Shown: in pieces, positions 4,125-38,766 of the stretch | Position numbering within the stretch: the first letter of the stretch is position 1 | Layout of the letters: each line of letters starts with the position of its first letter | NCBI GenBank assembly: GCA_003563855.1 | Contig: PWTM01000309.1 | Location: forward strand, 18,385 to 82,384 | DNA from: PVC group bacterium | GTDB taxonomy: Bacteria > Verrucomicrobiota > Kiritimatiellia > PWTM01 | Length of the DNA stretch: 64,000 nucleotides | Reading direction: 5' to 3' | Position numbers and translations under genes: made by a program | Notes under the pieces: generated by a model | Told to the model about the DNA's origin: nothing | Seen by the model: only the letters and a program-made list of their open reading frames with translations | Databases searched by the model: none

Positions 4125-5468
4125 CTAGCGCCGCGAGCGCAGTTTGCCCTTCTTCAGGAACCCGTCGTAGTGCCGCATGAGCAGGTGCGACTCCACCTGT
4201 CGCATCGTGTCGAGCATGACGCCCACGATGATCAGCAGGCTCGTACCGCCGAAGAAGGAGCTGACGATCCAGGGCACACCAAACTGGCGGGCCAGGATCA
4301 TCGGCATCACGGCGATGGCCGTCAGAAACACGGCGCCGGCCAGCGTGATCCTCGTCATGGTCCGGTCCAGGAAGTCCGCGGTCGGCCGGCCGGGCCGGAT
4401 CCCGGGCACGTACCCGCCGTACTTCTTGAGGTCGTCGGCGATCTGGACGGGGTTGAACTGGGTGGCGACCCAGAAGTAGGAGAAGAAGAGAATCAGCAGC
4501 GCGTAGAGGGCGGTGTGCAGCGGGGTTCCGTAGTCGACCTGCGCGGCCATGCTGCGGCCGACGGCGCCCATCCGGCGCAGGATCTGGGGCGGGAACATCA
4601 GCAGCGCGGAGGCGAAGATGATCGGCATGACGCCGGCGTAGTTCACGCGCAACGGCATGTAGGTGCTCTGTCCGCCGTAGACCTTGCGGCCGACCACCCG
4701 CTTGGCGTACTGCACGGGGATCTTGCGCTGCGCCTGCGTCACGGCGACGACGGCGGCGACGACGAGGAAGATCAGCACCAGCAGACCGACGAGGTGGAAG
4801 ACGTTGAACTGGGCCACCCCGTCCACCCGGCGGAACATCTGCACCAGCGCCTGGATCGCGCCGGGCAGCCGGCTGACGATACTGACGGTGATGATCAGCG
4901 AGATGCCGTTGCCGATGCCCCGTTCCGTCATCTGCTCGCCGAGCCACATCAGCAGCATCGTGCCCGTGGTCAGGGTAATGACGGTCAGTACGACGAACGG
5001 CACGGGGGCCATGAAGACGATGGGGCGATCGATGCCGAAGGTCGCCGGGTTACGGAGGCCGACGGCCATCACGCCTCCCTGGACGATGCAGAGGGCGACG
5101 GTCAGGTACCGGGTGTACTGTGTGATCTTCTGCCGCCCGCTCTCGCCCTCGCGGGCGAGCCGCTCGAGCGCGGGGACGACCGCCGTCATGAGCTGGAGGA
5201 TGATCGAGGCGCTGATGTAGGGCATGATGCCGAGCGCGCCGACGGCGGCCCGTTCGAAGGCCCCCCCGCTGAAGAGGTCGTAGAGCGCAAGAAACCCGCC
5301 CCCTGCCCGGTGGTGGATATCGGCGATCACCTCGCGCAGCGCCACCGCATCGACCCCGGGCGTCGGGACCATCGCGACGATCCGCGTCGCGAAGACCAGC
5401 CCGAGCGTGAAGAGGATGCGCTGCCGCAGCTCGGGGATCTTCAGGCTGTTGGTAAAGGCGGAGAGCAT
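4125..5468 (-). CDS. secY: preprotein translocase subunit SecY
   Basis: 447-aa polytopic membrane protein with canonical SecY motifs (GIMPYISASII..., NGISLII). Confidence 0.93.
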   Translation of the reverse strand: MLSAFTNSLKIPELRQRILFTLGLVFATRIVAMVPTPGVDAVALREVIADIHHRAGGGFLALYDLFSGGAFERAAVGALGIMPYISASIILQLMTAVVPALERLAREGESGRQKITQYTRYLTVALCIVQGGVMAVGLRNPATFGIDRPIVFMAPVPFVVLTVITLTTGTMLLMWLGEQMTERGIGNGISLIITVSIVSRLPGAIQALVQMFRRVDGVAQFNVFHLVGLLVLIFLVVAAVVAVTQAQRKIPVQYAKRVVGRKVYGGQSTYMPLRVNYAGVMPIIFASALLMFPPQILRRMGAVGRSMAAQVDYGTPLHTALYALLILFFSYFWVATQFNPVQIADDLKKYGGYVPGIRPGRPTADFLDRTMTRITLAGAVFLTAIAVMPMILARQFGVPWIVSSFFGGTSLLIIVGVMLDTMRQVESHLLMRHYDGFLKKGKLRSRR

Positions 5469-5484
5469 GATCGACCGTCCCGGT

Positions 5485-5928
5485 TCAGTCCTTGACTACG
5501 GTGCAGGTTCCGCCGGCCGCCTCGATCTTCGCGCGGGCGGCGCTGCTGAAGGCGTGCGCCTTGACCTCGAGGCGACGGGTGATTTCGCCCTGCGCGAGGA
5601 TCTTGACCGGGCCGGCGCCGCAGGCCAGGCCGGCCGCCCGGAGCGTCGCGGGCGAAACCTCCGTCCCGGCCTCGAACGCCTCGAGGGCGCCGACGTTGAC
5701 CGGCAGGTAGACCGTGCCGAACGCCTGGTTGAACCCGCGTTTCGGCAGGCGGCGGATCAACGGCATCTGGCCGCCTTCAAACGTCGGCCGCGTCTTGCTG
5801 CCGGCGCGCGCATGCTGGCCCTTGTGGCCCCGGCCGGCCGTCTTGCCCCACCCCGATGACTCGCCGCGACCGACGCGCTGCGTGCGCTTCCGGCTGCCGG
5901 GATTGCTCTTCAATGCGTGAAGCTTCAT
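5485..5928 (-). CDS. rplO: 50S ribosomal protein L15
   Basis: MKLHALKSNPGSRKRTQRVGRGESSGWGKTAGRGHKGQ... Confidence 0.93.
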   Translation of the reverse strand: MKLHALKSNPGSRKRTQRVGRGESSGWGKTAGRGHKGQHARAGSKTRPTFEGGQMPLIRRLPKRGFNQAFGTVYLPVNVGALEAFEAGTEVSPATLRAAGLACGAGPVKILAQGEITRRLEVKAHAFSSAARAKIEAAGGTCTVVKD

Positions 5929-5946
5929 GGCGATTCCCCGGCCGCC

Positions 5947-6465
5947 TCAGGCGACGGCGCTGCGCAGCGCCTTCACGTCCTCGTAGCGGCGAAGCTGGTT
6001 GAGCGCCTCGACGGTGGCGCGCGTGACATTCAGCGGGCTGTCGCTGCCCATGGACTTGGCGAGCACATCGCGGACGCCGGCCAGCTCGAGCACGGCCCGG
6101 ACGGCGCCGCCGGCGATGACGCCGGTCCCCTCGGAGGCGGGCTTCAGCAGGACGCGCCCGCCGGCATAGCGGCCGATGACCTCGTGCGGGATTGTCCGCC
6201 CCTTGAGCGTGACGGGGAAGAGCCCGCGTCGGGCCAGCTCGCCGCCTTTGCGGATCGCCTCGGCCACCTCGTTGGCCTTGCCGAGCGCGAAGCCTACCCG
6301 GCCCTTGCGGTCGCCGACGATGACCAGCGAGCTGAAACTGAAGCGGCGGCCGCCCTTGACCACCTTCGAGCAACGGTTGACGAAAACCACGCGCTCCTCG
6401 AGGTCGCCCTCCTGGGGCGTGCGCTCGCGGCGGCCTCTCGGTTCTCTTGTACTGCGTCTCTGCAC
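5947..6465 (-). CDS. rpsE: 30S ribosomal protein S5 (no L30 gene between it and L15)
   Basis: [33 protein letters not shown]... Only 18 nt separate it from rplO. Confidence 0.93.
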
Positions 6466-11172: not shown

Positions 11173-11180
11173 AATTCCGC

Positions 11181-11705
11181 TCAGCGTCTCCGCTGCTCCC
11201 CCGCCACCGCCCGGTCACCCGCGCGCGGCGCCCATCCCGGCCGGATCTCTTCCACCCGCGCTCCTGTCACCTCGGCCCGCACGTCCGTCGCCCGTACACG
11301 CGCTACCCAGGCCCCGTCCCGGAACACGTCGAGGACATCGCCCCGGCGTATGCCGCTGCCCGCGCCGCCGGCCAGCACCGTCAAACCCAGCCGCCCGTCG
11401 TAGCCCAACACCGCCCGCCCCTCGGCCGGCGATTCGTCCGGCAGCCCTTCCCCGCCCGGCGCCCGATCCGCGCGCGCCTCGGCATCGGCGAGGGAGCGGG
11501 TCAGTCTAGCGACCCGGCCGGACAAGTCCAGCATTTCCTTTTCCGCTTCCGCAGCCGCCCGCGCTTCCGCATCCGCGGCCGTCCCACCCGCCGCCGGCGC
11601 GGCGCCTCCCGGCGTCCGCCGGCCCAGCGACCAGCCCGCCGCCAGGCCCGCCGCCAGGAGCAACGGCGCAGCGAACCGGCGCGCCGCTGCCGCCCCGGTC
11701 CACAT
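11181..11705 (-). CDS. hypothetical signal-anchored protein inserted inside the S10 operon between rpsS and rplV
   Basis: 174-aa ORF lying 12 nt after the rpsS stop and 8 nt before the rplV start. The N-terminus has a hydrophobic stretch (AAPLLLAAGLAAGWSLG), followed by a coiled-coil-like AEAEKEMLDLSGRVARLTRSLADAEAR and then a C-terminal beta-rich segment (GDVLDVFRDGAWVARVRATDVRAEVTGARVEEI). No r-protein similarity was recognised. Confidence 0.55.
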   Translation of the reverse strand: MWTGAAAARRFAAPLLLAAGLAAGWSLGRRTPGGAAPAAGGTAADAEARAAAEAEKEMLDLSGRVARLTRSLADAEARADRAPGGEGLPDESPAEGRAVLGYDGRLGLTVLAGGAGSGIRRGDVLDVFRDGAWVARVRATDVRAEVTGARVEEIRPGWAPRAGDRAVAGEQRRR

Positions 11706-11717
11706 GCGCCCGCCGTC

Positions 11718-12002
11718 CTACTTGAGCGAGACGGTCTTGTCCGTCGCCGCCCCGTGCCGTCGGAACGCCCGGGTCGGCGAGAACTCGCCCAGCCGGTGTC
11801 CCACCATGTTCTCCGTCACGAACACCGCGATAAACGCCTTGCCGTTGTGCACGAGAAACGTGTGCCCCACGAACTCCGGCAGGATCATCGAGCGGCGCGA
11901 CGAGGTCCGGATCTGCCGGCGCTCGCCGGTCTGGTTCATCCGCTCGACCCGCCGCAGCAGCTTGTCTTCGACGTAGGGTCCCTTCTTGATGGAACGGGCC
12001 AT
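11718..12002 (-). CDS. rpsS: 30S ribosomal protein S19
   Basis: [23 protein letters not shown]... Confidence 0.93.
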
Positions 12003-33756: not shown

Positions 33757-36700
33757 CTAGCGGCGCTCGACGCGAAGGCGGATGAATAACCGGCCGTCTT
33801 CCGCCAGGCTTTCGCTGAAGTCGACGATCACCTTGTCGATGCCGGTGCCGAAGCCGTCGCCTATCTCGCTTATGTCGATTTCCTCGATCTGTTCATCGTC
33901 CGCTTCGGCCCAGGCGACGAGATCGGTGCTGAACATCGCAACGAGGGCGGCGTCTTTCGCGAAGACGGCCCTGCGATAGGTGAAGCGGAGAAAGTCCTCG
34001 CCTTCGCCCGCGATCCGCTCGAGCGTCGGCAATAACCCGCGGGCATCCTCGTCCGGACCCTCCGCGCCCAGCGCCCAGGCGAGGCCGTTGGCCACGCCGT
34101 CGCCCAGGAAGTCGTCGTCGAAACCCGTCTGGCCTTCGAAGCCGTCCATCCATTCCTCGAAGGGCATCGAATCCGGCGCGGTGGAAACGATGATCACCAC
34201 CTCGTCGTATACCTGCTGGAAGCCGTCGTCCGCCGTCAGGCGGAGCGTATACTCGCCTTCGCCAAAGAACGCGACGGTGGTCTCGGGGTCGGACGGATCA
34301 TCGAAGACCACCCGCACGTCGGGACCGTCGATCTTGCTCCACTCGGTCGTCAGCGGATCCCCGTCAGGGTCGAGGGCCGACCCATTGAGGGTAACAACGG
34401 CACTCGGAGCGCCGGGTGCGACATCCTCGTAGGGATGTCCTTCTTCCAAGGTCACCCCCCACTTGTGCGCCAGATACCCCTCAATTTGCCGGGCCGTTTC
34501 CGCATCTTCTTCGCCATCGGTAAAAATGAATTCGCCTGCGGCTCCATGATCCCAATACTGCCAGTCATTGGCTCCACCCAAAAGCCTCCAAACCGAATCA
34601 ATGGAGGAATCAGCAACCGCTTTCCAAAGCGTTGGCCCCATGGGCAATGCAGCAGTCGTCGATGATTCAGAACCATCGCGATACATGGTGAACGGATAAT
34701 CCGACCCGGTCCTCCATGCTGTCCCGCCGTTGCTGCCTTGCACTCTGGCGTCATTGGTGTTTTGGGACAAGAGCACCCGATGACTTGAGAATGTAGCGTT
34801 GTCGTAGTACGTGACAATATATGCGTTGCGCAATTCGAATGCACCAGTTGTTTCCAAGAATGTCCTGTTGCCCCCCGAACGTCCAACTGTGGGCATATCG
34901 TTCAAAAGGCTATCTTCGGCATTGAATGGCGGTCTTAATGATGCGTCACTCTGCTCGGCATGATTCTCGTTGCCGGACTTGTCACTCCACACATGAACCT
35001 TTCCATCAACAATATCCAGCGTGGATTCATCCATGGCATCAAACCAGGCGGCAAGATTCACTTGCTCCGGCGTCCACGGTGCGCTCTCGGTCATATACAC
35101 CGTCTGGTCCGGTCCCGCATCGACCTCCGGCGGAGCCTTCCACCGGGCGTAAAGCGTCACATCTTCAGCCGGCATGGCAAAGGTCGCATCCGCCGCGTAA
35201 CCGATACCTGTACCATCCGCCGCGGTATTCCATCCGCCGAATACGAATCCGGCGCGCACCAGGTTGCCCGTATTGCCAAGGACCGTCACGTCCGAACCGG
35301 GCAGATACGGCCCTTCGGTATCGACCGGCACATCGCCGCTGTCGGCGTTGTTGGCATGATAGGTGACGCTGTACCGTCGCAGGGTCGTGGCGGAGAGCGT
35401 GTCCGACCAGCCGGTCTCGTTCTGCGCCGGCGCCTTGTCGCGCGCGCGGACGCGGTAGCTGTAGGTCGTCTCCGGGGTGAGGCCGGTGTCGGTGTAGACG
35501 GTGCTGTCCTGCCAGCCGCTGTCGGATCCGCCCGGATTGCCAGAGGTCTCTTCGAAGAAGTACTCGACGCCGCTCGGATCGCTGGCGGTGGTGGCCGTCA
35601 TCGTGATCGAGGTCTCGCCGGTCGCGGTGGGCGCGACGGCGAAGGTCATCGGATCGGGCGTCGGCGGATCGAGGTCCGGTGCGTCGGTCGTGGCCGAGGC
35701 CGGCTCGGAGTCGGCCGTGGTGTTGCCGATCGAATCGCGGGCGCGGACCACGTAGGTATACGTCGTGCCCGGGCTGAGGCCGGTATCGGTGTATTCCGGA
35801 GACGCCTGCCAGTCGGAGTCGCTCCCGCCGTCGGTCGCCTCGAAGTAGTATTCGACGCCGTTGATGTCGACGGCGGTGGTGGCCGTCATCGTGATCGCGT
35901 TTTCGCCGAGCGCGGCGGGCGGCGAGGCGAAGGTCATCGGATCGGGCGTCGGCGGGGTAGTGTCGAGCCCGGCCGTCGCGCTGCGTTCGTCGGACCATTC
36001 CCCGACGTTCCCCACGGCGTCGCGGGCTTGCACCCGGAACGTGTAGGTCTCGCCGTCGGCGAGGCCGGTGCTGTCCCAGCGGGTCTCGGTGATCCAGCCG
36101 CTGTCTTCCCCCGTCGTCACGTTCTCGAAGAGGTATTCGACCGGGCCGGAGGGATCGGCGGCGGTGGTGGCGACCATTCCGATGACGCCGGATTCGACCG
36201 GGCTCGGCGGGATGGCGAAGGTCATCGGGTTGGGCGTGGGCGGCGTCTCGTCGTCCATCAATTCGATCATGGCGCGACCGAGGGCATCGCCGACGAGCAG
36301 GAAGGTTTCGGCGTTGTGGTTGTAGTGGTAGCCCGTGCTGCTCGGGGACACATCACTCGCTCTCCAGTAGGAGCGTGCTTCGACGGTCTTCACGTTGCCC
36401 TCGAACTGCGGGTAGTTGCCCGTTTCGCCATCGACCGCGAGCTGCGCCTCGGCCACGGTTAGCGTATTGCCACTCATATCCCAGCCGGAAAACGCGATCG
36501 TGGCCAGCACGAAAGGCGCATTGGGGGCGATGTTGTCGGGATAGCGGTTCTCGTAATAGCCCCGCAACTGCTCGATGAACTGCACGAGATTCTGCTCGTA
36601 ACGGCCGGCCGTGCGAGAATTGCCCTGGTCCCAGTGCCCTTGAAACCACGCAAAACCGGCGATCTCGAAGCCCTGGTCGGCCCATTGGGGATATTCGGCT

Positions 36701-38766
36701 GCAAAATTATCCAGTACATCCACGACATTGAACCGGTTGTACACCGTCCAGTAATCTCCCCAATCCGCGCCCACGCCGGGTTCCGACTCCGCGGTGGCGG
36801 TATGCTCCATCCGGCTCACATACACAGCATTGTTATGCCTCACATGCAGTTTGTCTCTATGATAATGCTTACCCTCTTCCCAGGTCAGGTTGGGCCCCAT
36901 ATCGGCTTCGTCGAGGAAAAGCTTATCGAAGGTGTAGCCACCGTACCAAGTGCCTGGCGTAGGAGATTCATTGTCAATATTCCAGGACGACGGCGAATCG
37001 CCGTAGCCGGCGTAAACGGTGTCGCCAATGATATGTTGCGGGCTGCCCGGGGGGAGCATATCCCAGTACAATCCACGATTGCCCTGAGAGGCCTTGATAA
37101 TCAAGACGGGTTCATCGTGGTACCAGCCCATGATATGCCCGAAGCCGTACTCGGGGCCGAAGACGCTGCTGGTGGCGCCGAATTCCGGCTTGAGCAGATC
37201 GTCGCCCGTGGCCGCATGGATGCCGCGGTAGCGCACGTCCTCGCGTGCAACCCAGCCGCTGCCGTCATGCAGGTTCGGGAACTTGTTTTCCCGCAATACC
37301 ATGGTCTCGAGCGTTCCGGGGGCCCTGCCGCTTCGGGTGCCGAAACCGACCATGTTGGATTGACCGGAGAGAATGTAGACCCTTACGGGGCGATCGGAAG
37401 AACCGGTATCGCCCGGCTCCGGGGCGGGCAGCGGATAGTCCACAACCGGCCTGTCGTCCGGATCGAGCGGGTCGGTAAACGCGGCGTAGATCTCGTACCA
37501 GTCGCCGACGCCGTCACCGTCGGTATCGGGGTTGAGCGGATCGGTGCCGTAGACCGCGACTTCCATGCCATCGGGAATCCCGTCGTTATCGGTATCCGGA
37601 TCGAGCGGGTCGGTACCATGGGCGATCTCGCCAAGAAAGGTGCGCTGGCCCCCTTCTTCGGTGAAGAAGATGCCCCTTTCCTCCCATTGGTCGTAGCGCG
37701 GATCCGCGCTGGTGACGGTGATGTTGTCGCCGTCGAGCAGCCCGTCGCCGTCCGTGTCGGGATCAAGCGGGTCGGTGCCGAAGTGCGCTTCGCCGTAGAA
37801 CGTGCGCTCGCCCCCGGCGTCGGTATAATAGTAGCCCGCGGTCGCGAAGTCGGTGTAACGCGGATCCTCACTCGTCACGACGATATTGTCGCCGTCGAGC
37901 AGCCCGTCGCCGTCGGTGTCCGGGTTGGTCGGATCCGTTCCGAGAAGAAATTCCTCCATATTGGTCAGACCATCGCCATCGACATCTTCATCGGGATCGG
38001 CGCCGGTGGGGTCCCCGAAGTACTTCTCCTCCCACCAGTTCGGCAGGCCGTCCCCGTCGTCGTCGGGCGGGTGCTCGACGGTGATCTTTTCCGAGAGGGC
38101 ATACATGCGCAGCGAGTCGCCGACGCCGCGCCGTTCTGCGGCGCTGCCGGCGATCCAGCCGCGGCCGGTGCTTCCCGCGCGGCCGGTGAGAGCGGATTCG
38201 GTCCCGTTGCGGAGCGGGTAGAGGTTGTGCGCCACCCCGGCGTCCGTCGAACCGCTCCAGGTGAGCTCCGACTGCGCGCCGGGGACCACGGTGAGGTTCT
38301 GGGTGATCTGGATCGGGTTGGCGATCGAGCCGTTCCACAGGTCGTCGTAGCCGGTGGCCACCAGAAGGCCGTCGAGGCGATAGACCGGCGCCTCGACAAC
38401 GGCATTGTCGCGGGCATCGACCGCGGCCTCGTCCCCTGCCGCTCTCGTGGAGACGATGGCCCGCCATTCGAGGTCCTCGAGCGTCGGCTGGATTTCCGGC
38501 ACCGTCGATGCGGCGGCGGCATTGCTGACGAACGTGTTCCAGTGGGAAATGGGGTGATTATCCTCGCCGCCGCCCGAGTTGCGGTTGGTGGTGTTGCTGG
38601 TCGCGAAGACCAGGTGGAAGGAATCGCCGGGCCCCAGGTCCGGCGGAATCAGCGGGTTGTCGTACTGGACGAAGTGCTCCGCCGCGGCCGGGGCGGCGGC
38701 AGCGAGCGCCGCGACCAGGGCGAGGCGCGCCAACGGGGCGAAACGGGATCGGGATACGGTTTTCAT
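33757..38766 (-). CDS. giant secreted multidomain protein: TSP3-like Ca-binding repeats + SASA/SGNH-type carbohydrate (sialate-O-acetyl)esterase domain + 3 tandem FN3-like repeats + Listeria-Bacteroides (Flg_new) repeat + LamG/ConA-like lectin domain + PKD/cadherin-like domain
   Basis: Start ATG 38766 (MKTVSRSRFAPLARLALVAALAAAAPAAA signal peptide). The 5' 202 codons of the 1871-aa track ORF are read-through. Motifs: DPDTDGDGLLDGDN (x4), ILSGQSNMVGFG...FAWFQGHWDQGN, PPTP(N/D)PMTFA.PP (x3), YSVTYHANNADSGDVP...FGGWNTAADGTG...DVTLYARW. Confidence 0.85.
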   Translation of the reverse strand: MKTVSRSRFAPLARLALVAALAAAAPAAAEHFVQYDNPLIPPDLGPGDSFHLVFATSNTTNRNSGGGEDNHPISHWNTFVSNAAAASTVPEIQPTLEDLEWRAIVSTRAAGDEAAVDARDNAVVEAPVYRLDGLLVATGYDDLWNGSIANPIQITQNLTVVPGAQSELTWSGSTDAGVAHNLYPLRNGTESALTGRAGSTGRGWIAGSAAERRGVGDSLRMYALSEKITVEHPPDDDGDGLPNWWEEKYFGDPTGADPDEDVDGDGLTNMEEFLLGTDPTNPDTDGDGLLDGDNIVVTSEDPRYTDFATAGYYYTDAGGERTFYGEAHFGTDPLDPDTDGDGLLDGDNITVTSADPRYDQWEERGIFFTEEGGQRTFLGEIAHGTDPLDPDTDNDGIPDGMEVAVYGTDPLNPDTDGDGVGDWYEIYAAFTDPLDPDDRPVVDYPLPAPEPGDTGSSDRPVRVYILSGQSNMVGFGTRSGRAPGTLETMVLRENKFPNLHDGSGWVAREDVRYRGIHAATGDDLLKPEFGATSSVFGPEYGFGHIMGWYHDEPVLIIKASQGNRGLYWDMLPPGSPQHIIGDTVYAGYGDSPSSWNIDNESPTPGTWYGGYTFDKLFLDEADMGPNLTWEEGKHYHRDKLHVRHNNAVYVSRMEHTATAESEPGVGADWGDYWTVYNRFNVVDVLDNFAAEYPQWADQGFEIAGFAWFQGHWDQGNSRTAGRYEQNLVQFIEQLRGYYENRYPDNIAPNAPFVLATIAFSGWDMSGNTLTVAEAQLAVDGETGNYPQFEGNVKTVEARSYWRASDVSPSSTGYHYNHNAETFLLVGDALGRAMIELMDDETPPTPNPMTFAIPPSPVESGVIGMVATTAADPSGPVEYLFENVTTGEDSGWITETRWDSTGLADGETYTFRVQARDAVGNVGEWSDERSATAGLDTTPPTPDPMTFASPPAALGENAITMTATTAVDINGVEYYFEATDGGSDSDWQASPEYTDTGLSPGTTYTYVVRARDSIGNTTADSEPASATTDAPDLDPPTPDPMTFAVAPTATGETSITMTATTASDPSGVEYFFEETSGNPGGSDSGWQDSTVYTDTGLTPETTYSYRVRARDKAPAQNETGWSDTLSATTLRRYSVTYHANNADSGDVPVDTEGPYLPGSDVTVLGNTGNLVRAGFVFGGWNTAADGTGIGYAADATFAMPAEDVTLYARWKAPPEVDAGPDQTVYMTESAPWTPEQVNLAAWFDAMDESTLDIVDGKVHVWSDKSGNENHAEQSDASLRPPFNAEDSLLNDMPTVGRSGGNRTFLETTGAFELRNAYIVTYYDNATFSSHRVLLSQNTNDARVQGSNGGTAWRTGSDYPFTMYRDGSESSTTAALPMGPTLWKAVADSSIDSVWRLLGGANDWQYWDHGAAGEFIFTDGEEDAETARQIEGYLAHKWGVTLEEGHPYEDVAPGAPSAVVTLNGSALDPDGDPLTTEWSKIDGPDVRVVFDDPSDPETTVAFFGEGEYTLRLTADDGFQQVYDEVVIIVSTAPDSMPFEEWMDGFEGQTGFDDDFLGDGVANGLAWALGAEGPDEDARGLLPTLERIAGEGEDFLRFTYRRAVFAKDAALVAMFSTDLVAWAEADDEQIEEIDISEIGDGFGTGIDKVIVDFSESLAEDGRLFIRLRVERR

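Follow-up and report, generated by a model that had tools for sequence, protein, structure and literature searches.

A gene family in the rpsS–rplV slot of the Verrucomicrobiota S10 operon probably encodes envelope proteins with a FlgT/TsaP-like barrel

We report a protein-coding gene, here called gene X, that lies inside the S10 ribosomal protein operon of a PVC group bacterium, between rpsS and rplV, and that has homologs in the same slot in all three sampled branches of the Verrucomicrobiota. The DNA analyzed is a 64,000-nt stretch of contig PWTM01000309.1 (hereafter the window), in which gene X is an ATG-to-TGA open reading frame (ORF) of 525 nt, or 174 amino acids (aa), at positions 11181–11705 of the minus strand. 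It begins 12 nt past the rpsS stop codon and ends 8 nt ahead of the rplV start codon; an earlier note on this DNA had given these coordinates and spacings and had placed the insertion at the rpsS/rplV junction, all of which the ORF and its neighbors confirm. Because most members of the family carry what look like Sec-type signal peptides followed by non-basic mature parts, we favor the hypothesis that gene X encodes an exported or membrane-anchored envelope protein with a FlgT/TsaP-like barrel, the synthesis of which is tied to ribosomal protein (r-protein) expression; on the sequences available we consider this the probable reading.

Gene X is a genuine protein-coding gene. We base this on an ortholog in the same slot, on codon-position identity and dN/dS, on homology to a syntenic family and on the confident prediction of a C-terminal fold. 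ORF length alone proves nothing here, because the GC content of the window is 69.7%, long spurious ORFs are present in every frame, and the antisense (mirror) frame of gene X is open too. The composition of gene X is also atypical: its GC content is 0.775, compared with 0.64–0.76 in the neighboring r-protein genes, and its GC content by codon position is 0.82/0.67/0.83, compared with third-position values (GC3) of 0.90–0.93 and second-position values (GC2) of 0.40–0.54 in r-protein genes. Gene X fails a GC3/GC2 gene filter that every neighboring r-protein gene passes, and the earlier note's statement that it shares the codon and GC style of the r-proteins does not hold. These properties, together with a low-complexity N-terminal half, are the grounds on which gene X might be taken as nonfunctional, that is, as a chance ORF in a GC-rich spacer or as the decaying remnant of a recent insertion by a mobile element or horizontal transfer. 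However, a search of 5.8 billion proteins recovered the identical protein, again encoded between rpsS and rplV, from two further contigs, including the JGI contig SL_1KL_011_SED, as well as one 178-aa ortholog, 56% identical, located directly after rplB-rpsS on an independent contig (L001). Identity between the window gene and this ortholog is 0.68/0.74/0.49 by codon position, third positions being the most variable. The overall dN/dS is 0.41, with 0.56 for the N-terminal half, the fastest-evolving part, and 0.28 for the C-terminal domain; for the same pair of lineages the flanking rpsS and rplB have values of 0.08–0.09. The dN/dS and codon-position pattern therefore place the called frame under purifying selection. 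No direct or inverted repeats of note flank gene X, by which a mobile-element origin is rejected, and a hidden Markov model (HMM) of the barrel detects no gene remnants in gene-less Verrucomicrobiota loci. Given this selection, the hundreds of homologs in the identical slot across one phylum, the confident fold prediction and the lack of repeats and remnants, the possibility that gene X is nonfunctional is effectively refuted and its likelihood is negligible.

A single-protein search finds only gene X's own protein and the one ortholog, and the family emerged through the rpsS-rplV gaps of related genomes. We measured this gap in 80 S10 loci from species-representative genomes, with the adjacent L22 as probe. 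Outside the Verrucomicrobiota the gap is mostly ~12–80 nt, with two Clostridia loci at ~181–187 nt, and no gap in that part of the sample contains an ORF. The loci of Verrucomicrobiaceae and Chthoniobacterales have gaps of ~850–880 nt containing an ORF of 259–283 aa, and several Opitutae loci have gaps of ~380–460 nt containing an ORF of 112–132 aa. In all, enlarged gaps with homologous ORFs were found in 12 Verrucomicrobiota genome loci, such that the synteny check recommended in the earlier note is positive and far broader than expected. The gap ORFs share a hydrophobic N-terminus and a C-terminal segment of ~75 residues that can be aligned with the window protein. Across a 14-sequence alignment V110, G114, G118, G122, G163, and D164 are invariant, and V127 and R129 are nearly so. 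When the window protein and its ortholog were compared by hhalign with 11 gap ORFs, in a target profile that excluded the window lineage, the match had a probability of 96.5% and an E-value of 8e-10 over 80 columns; BLASTP against one long form gives E 2e-6.

Profile searches added 86 further short-form and 381 long-form proteins, all unnamed, and a HMMER search run exhaustively over 1.84 billion cluster representatives returned 698 clusters (50% identity) at E ≤ 1e-10. The names that sources give to family members are almost always "hypothetical protein." Among the contigs of four divergent members, three carry the gene between S19 and L22, and the fourth carries it immediately before L22, at the contig end. 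When the window protein and its homologs are scanned against Pfam and NCBIfam, no model reaches its cut-off and no ribosomal family is matched, so the protein stays unrecognized and without a ribosomal homolog, as the first description had it. Metagenome pattern scans with two family alignments gave pattern matches and no confirmed relative, one of the scans probably having been swamped by the low-complexity pattern ADAEARAD. From these comparisons the family appears to be large and uncurated, to be confined to Verrucomicrobiota in the sampled genomes, and always to occupy the rpsS-X-rplV slot. A 13th locus with a long-form gene (L010:1-551), truncated at the contig end, comes from contig JBBROU010000190.1, which belongs to a metagenome-assembled genome labeled Bryobacterales (Acidobacteriota). 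This gene matches the barrel HMM at E 3e-36 and sits upstream of a Chthoniobacterales-like L22; the contig is probably mis-binned.

The family falls into three length classes, of ~112 aa in Opitutae, 174–178 aa in the window lineage, and ~260 aa in Verrucomicrobiae and Chthoniobacterales, and these differ in the helices between the N-terminus and the barrel, of which the Opitutae forms have none, the window lineage one long helix, and the ~260-aa forms three. Proteins of the medium class are rare, and the 150 best representatives include just two full-length ones, the window protein and its ortholog. A strongly conserved R-M-E-A-L-G motif is seen between helices 1 and 2 of the long forms (e.g., L009:2168-2956), and several further E, R, L, and Q positions in their helical region are invariant or nearly so. 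This conservation suggests a specific functional site in the long forms that would be missing from the 174-aa form.

An AlphaFold2 model of the window protein, built with a 43-sequence alignment (mean pLDDT 77.6), bears out the anatomy originally described, in which the N-terminus is hydrophobic, a helical segment follows, and the C-terminus is rich in beta structure. Residues 1–28 (11622–11705, minus strand, as are all segments of the gene) form a putative signal peptide or signal anchor, consisting of an RR n-region, an 18-residue uncharged run (FAAPLLLAAGLAAGWSLG), and a second RR, with a modeled helix at residues 14–25. A low-complexity linker rich in Ala, Gly, and Pro follows at residues 29–42 (11580–11621), where pLDDT is low and GC content reaches 0.79. 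Residues 43–81 (11463–11579) are modeled as a single long alpha-helix (pLDDT 73–91), a possible coiled-coil or oligomerization segment with a weak alignment to the third long helix of the 260-aa forms. Residues 97–168 (11202–11417) make up the core that the family conserves, a six-stranded FlgT_C/TsaP-like beta-barrel predicted with pLDDT of 90–97, and this is the single copy of the domain in the window. The gene closes with a C-terminal tail, AGEQRRR, and the TGA stop (11181–11201). The model of a long form has a signal peptide, helices at residues 36–88, 96–136, and 140–172, and the same barrel.

We would class the barrel as a divergent FlgT_C/TsaP-like domain, remotely homologous to the C-domain of FlgT and to domains CI and CII of TsaP, and not as a formal member of PF16538. 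Searching with a 64-member barrel profile gives E 7.4e-6 for Myxococcus TsaP and E 9e-5 for a MexC-like periplasmic adaptor; in scans of the individual members, 34 of the 64 have sub-threshold FlgT_C matches at E ≤ 1, the best at E 1.9e-5. The FlgT_C gathering score is 27 bits, compared with 12.6 bits for the full-length window protein, 14.5 bits for its barrel only, and 13.7–17.7 bits for homologs. The barrel of gene X has the six-stranded barrel or beta-roll fold of the FlgT C-domain, with six strands and one short helical turn modeled in 72 residues. An extruding "finger" subdomain on the beta-roll has been described for FlgT and TsaP; the barrel model, the residues of which were not superposed, has no obvious long insertion of this sort. 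A cryoEM preprint describes the PilQ secretin as encircled by a belt of 14 beta-rolls built from the two FlgT-like beta-rolls of TsaP (bioRxiv 10.1101/2020.05.29.123786). The closest known systems are FlgT_C (PF16538) of the Vibrio flagellar H-ring protein FlgT (PDB 3W1E, 8Z5N) and CI/CII of TsaP, the secretin-associated protein of type IVa pili (PDB 3JC8). Unlike these, gene X encodes a single barrel, and scanning the window protein and homologs against Pfam and NCBIfam revealed no FlgT N or M domain and no LysM; predicted coiled-coil helices are present instead. Moreover, it is located in the S10 operon, and flagellar and pilus genes are absent from the fetched flanks.

MreC, the rod-shape scaffold of the elongasome, is a further relative of marginal similarity. 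The Pfam model (PF04085) matches 5 of the 64 members, with a best E-value of 0.0034, PDB MreC is matched at E 0.21, and the NCBIfam model (PRK13922) gives 13.6–13.8 bits against cut-offs of 343–385. Gene X could be imagined as a minimal counterpart of MreC that regulates or scaffolds peptidoglycan synthesis, in which anchor, coiled coil, and barrel bind and activate a penicillin-binding protein or SEDS complex and the ribosomal operon scales expression to growth. MreC does have an anchor and a coiled coil, but the Opitutae forms of gene X have neither and would be ill-suited to an MreC-like membrane scaffold. Furthermore, MreC has two barrels and is encoded in mreBCD, whereas gene X encodes one barrel in the S10 operon with no mreB or mreD context, and on every measure its barrel matches FlgT and TsaP better. 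We therefore regard an MreC-like role as unlikely.

Other similarities of the barrel are weaker. Its likeness to the N-terminal "crown" barrel of the F1/V1-ATPase alpha and beta subunits and to the N-terminal barrels of HerA, FliI, and EscN is at fold level only; these are cytoplasmic domains of large ATPases, and their sequence similarity to gene X is negligible (one ATP-synt_ab_N match, E 0.08). RimM, which binds S19, YajC, and other ribosome- or translocon-linked barrels have no support in sequence or in the top-60 structural matches. Recurrent sub-threshold HutF_N matches (E 0.00025–0.003) occur in the window protein and its ortholog at residues 139–165 (11211–11291), in the last beta-hairpins, and the barrel profile also matches the lipoyl/beta-hairpin region of MexC and MexA adaptors at E 9e-5 to 0.5; both probably reflect common hairpin motifs rather than homology. 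We treat the HutF_N (E 0.003) and Tic110 matches of the window protein in Pfam and NCBIfam as noise, and the coiled-coil Pfam matches of the long forms (PUMA_CC, Mod_r, and others) lie under their cut-offs and have a compositional look. The PVC signature protein CT421.2, of 53–80 aa and present in all PVC phyla, is set apart by its description, in which S19 and L22 are unmentioned (PMC2474590, PMC3444138), and not by comparison of sequences; unlike that all-PVC distribution, gene X is absent from loci labeled Kiritimatiellales.

We assessed export by simple sequence statistics, namely hydrophobicity and charge, on the family N-termini. Lysine or arginine precedes the hydrophobic run in 85–99% of members, the uncharged run spans 18–22 residues, and none of the family N-termini contains a lipobox. 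The long forms have a c-region of small residues and, after it, an acidic start to the mature protein, and the median isoelectric point (pI) of the mature part is 6.2 in long forms and 7.0 in short forms. Most family members thus probably consist of a Sec-type signal peptide and a non-basic mature part, which fits a periplasmic protein and is unlike ribosomal proteins. These data bear on the possibility that gene X encodes a membrane-anchored, cytoplasm-facing ribosome-associated factor, with an N-out/C-in anchor and a barrel that docks on translating ribosomes and couples them to the membrane. The window protein's own sequence would allow such a factor. The protein is indeed basic, but its pI is explicable by its Arg-rich, 77% GC composition, and both short and long forms bear textbook Sec signals, beginning with MK or MR and a hydrophobic core. 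The strongest structural and sequence neighbors (FlgT, TsaP, MreC, and RND adaptors) are periplasmic, and the Pfam and NCBIfam scans gave no match to ribosomal or ribosome-biogenesis families. We consider a ribosome tether very unlikely, and the same low likelihood applies to particular docking places such as the vicinity of the L22-lined exit tunnel or S19. The earlier note's suggestion of a lineage-specific ribosome-associated protein is, on the same grounds, unlikely to be correct. Its other suggestion, a membrane-tethered factor co-expressed with the translation machinery, survives in part: co-expression is probable, given the short gaps and the absence of promoter- and terminator-like sites, and a tether is plausible for the 174-aa form, whereas the globular domain most likely points into the periplasm and not toward the ribosome.

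If gene X encodes an envelope protein, as we favor, its mode of action might be as follows. The gene would be transcribed within the S10 operon mRNA, giving a constitutive product in proportion to r-protein synthesis, and the N-terminus would direct the protein to the Sec translocon. Helix and barrel would then reach the periplasm, where in the 174-aa form an uncleaved anchor would probably hold them at the inner membrane. The barrel could serve as a protein-protein docking or oligomerization module of an envelope structure, as do the barrels of FlgT, TsaP, and MreC, and the helices could provide self-association or spacing. We infer co-transcription, export and topology, oligomerization, and the role as an envelope scaffold from the comparisons above. 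A bolder version, in which the product is an abundant periplasmic scaffold with a ring- or lattice-forming FlgT/TsaP-like barrel on a coiled-coil stalk, is ancestral to the Verrucomicrobiota, is hard-wired to ribosome synthesis, and has its reach or spacing set in each class by the number of helices (0, 1, or 3), is a tentative idea that we think unlikely.

Some observations weigh against the envelope hypothesis. Gene X evolves 7–8 times faster than its neighbors (dN 0.38 vs. ~0.05), and several Verrucomicrobiota sub-clades have lost it, among them the sister group nearest to this organism in the sample; from these losses it follows that gene X is not universally required. The FlgT_C and MreC matches are all under curated cut-offs. 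The N-terminus of the window protein is atypical for a cleaved signal peptide, and because pairs of arginines stand on both sides of the 18-residue hydrophobic run, this run is perhaps an uncleaved anchor, the orientation of which the positive-inside rule does not settle; the N-terminus of the window protein may thus be such an anchor. Finally, the presumed periplasmic position of the window protein's barrel is drawn mainly from its homologs and is the weakest step of the argument.

The distribution of gene X was placed on a rough neighbor-joining tree of L2, S19, L22, and S3 (659 columns). The sampled Verrucomicrobiota form one clade of three branches, and the gene is present in all three, with long forms on the Verrucomicrobiae/Chthoniobacterales branch and short forms in part of the Opitutae. 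The 174-aa form stands alone on its branch, and its nearest sampled relatives (66% identical; one of them labeled Kiritimatiellales SZUA-127) are without the gene, which is also missing in Puniceicoccaceae, Oceanipulchritudo, Ereboglobus, and some other loci. On this small tree, the simplest history would be one ancient insertion followed by several losses and by remodeling of the helical part. The rpsS-rplV spacers of the nearest relatives, SZUA-127 and two "uncultured Verrucomicrobiota" (L004:2900-3001, L005:452-556, L006:2896-3001), are ~100 nt long, several times longer than in most other phyla, and have a GC content of 0.40–0.41 compared with 0.50–0.55; ORF, barrel remnant, and Rfam match are all absent from them. 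The spacer of Ereboglobus sp. PH5-10 (L016:2780-3000) has 222 nt, a GC content of 0.47 compared with 0.60 for the locus, and no ORF of the family. Within it, units of the GATTTTCGATTTTGGATTTTGG type and their complement (AATCCAAAATCGAGAATCGAAAATCG) make up an imperfect inverted repeat. The spacer has no Rfam match, and the repeat may be a hairpin that stayed behind at the gene-X slot or took its place. The two long Clostridia spacers (L063:2820-3001 and L064:2814-3001; Clostridium sp./Lachnospiraceae) measure ~181–187 nt at a GC content of 0.37, contain no ORF, and are unrelated to the Verrucomicrobiota gene.

The minus strand of the window carries a canonical str-S10-spc ribosomal superoperon, in which the order rpsJ-rplC-rplD-rplW-rplB-rpsS-X-rplV-rpsC-rplP-rpmC-rpsQ is canonical apart from X. 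Gene X lies between rpsS (S19; 11718–12002, minus strand, PF00203) upstream and rplV (L22; 10837–11172, minus strand, PF00237) downstream. The 12-nt rpsS-X spacer (GACGGCGGGCGC; 11706–11717, minus strand) compares with 5–33 nt in other family loci (n = 12), and the 8-nt X-rplV spacer (GCGGAATT; 11173–11180, minus strand) with −1 to 41 nt (n = 12). Because these gaps are short and no sigma-70-like promoter or intrinsic-terminator-like site was found near gene X on its own strand, co-transcription with the S10 operon is likely. The C-terminal tail is conserved, reading AGEQRER in the ortholog (AGEQR[RE]R in both), and would overlap the region expected to carry the ribosome-binding site and translation-initiation signals of rplV. 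An RNA element in the slot is not indicated: an Rfam search of the window returned three tRNAs only, and loci with "empty" rpsS-rplV gaps gave no match. Elsewhere in the window, rpmD (L30) is apparently missing from the spc operon, as only 18 nt (5929–5946) part the putative rpsE (5947–6465) from the putative rplO (5485–5928), both identified by reading the sequence. The region 34000–38000 has a lower GC content, 0.59–0.66 per kb against a window mean of 0.70, and few ORFs with the usual GC3 signature; it includes three short ORFs (35501–36325) with similar hydrophobic "AVVAVIVI"-type peptides and may be foreign or noncoding DNA.

Few bacterial gene arrangements are more strongly conserved than the internal order of S10. 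Passenger genes of r-protein operons are known, such as secY, adk, map, and infA in spc and secE and nusG by rplK, and like gene X they are non-ribosomal and presumably co-transcribed; with secY, gene X would also share the trait of being an envelope- or secretion-related gene embedded among r-protein genes. The spc operon of the window contains, at 4125–5468, what we take to be secY. These passengers, however, are near-universal and are located at operon ends or in the spc and alpha clusters, whereas gene X interrupts the otherwise almost invariant internal S10 order and occurs in one phylum. In the literature on this arrangement in Verrucomicrobia we found no paper that describes it. Neither the fold nor the protein type in general is new; it is the family, its three architectures, and its fixed S10 position that appear to be undescribed. 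What emerges is a gene for a non-ribosomal, probably exported protein that has become fixed inside S10 in the sampled branches of a single phylum, with three length classes and hundreds of sequence clusters. Gene X is a clean marker for Verrucomicrobiota, in that its presence, absence, and form follow sub-clades, and it is a well-defined experimental target in culturable relatives such as Prosthecobacter. Annotation pipelines could name the family, which is now called hypothetical or missed in GC-rich genomes. If the placement in the operon is functional, gene X would show how a bacterium ties the production of an envelope component to ribosome synthesis, and if the product were indeed a scaffold hard-wired in this way, it would represent an undescribed direct coupling of envelope construction to ribosome output.
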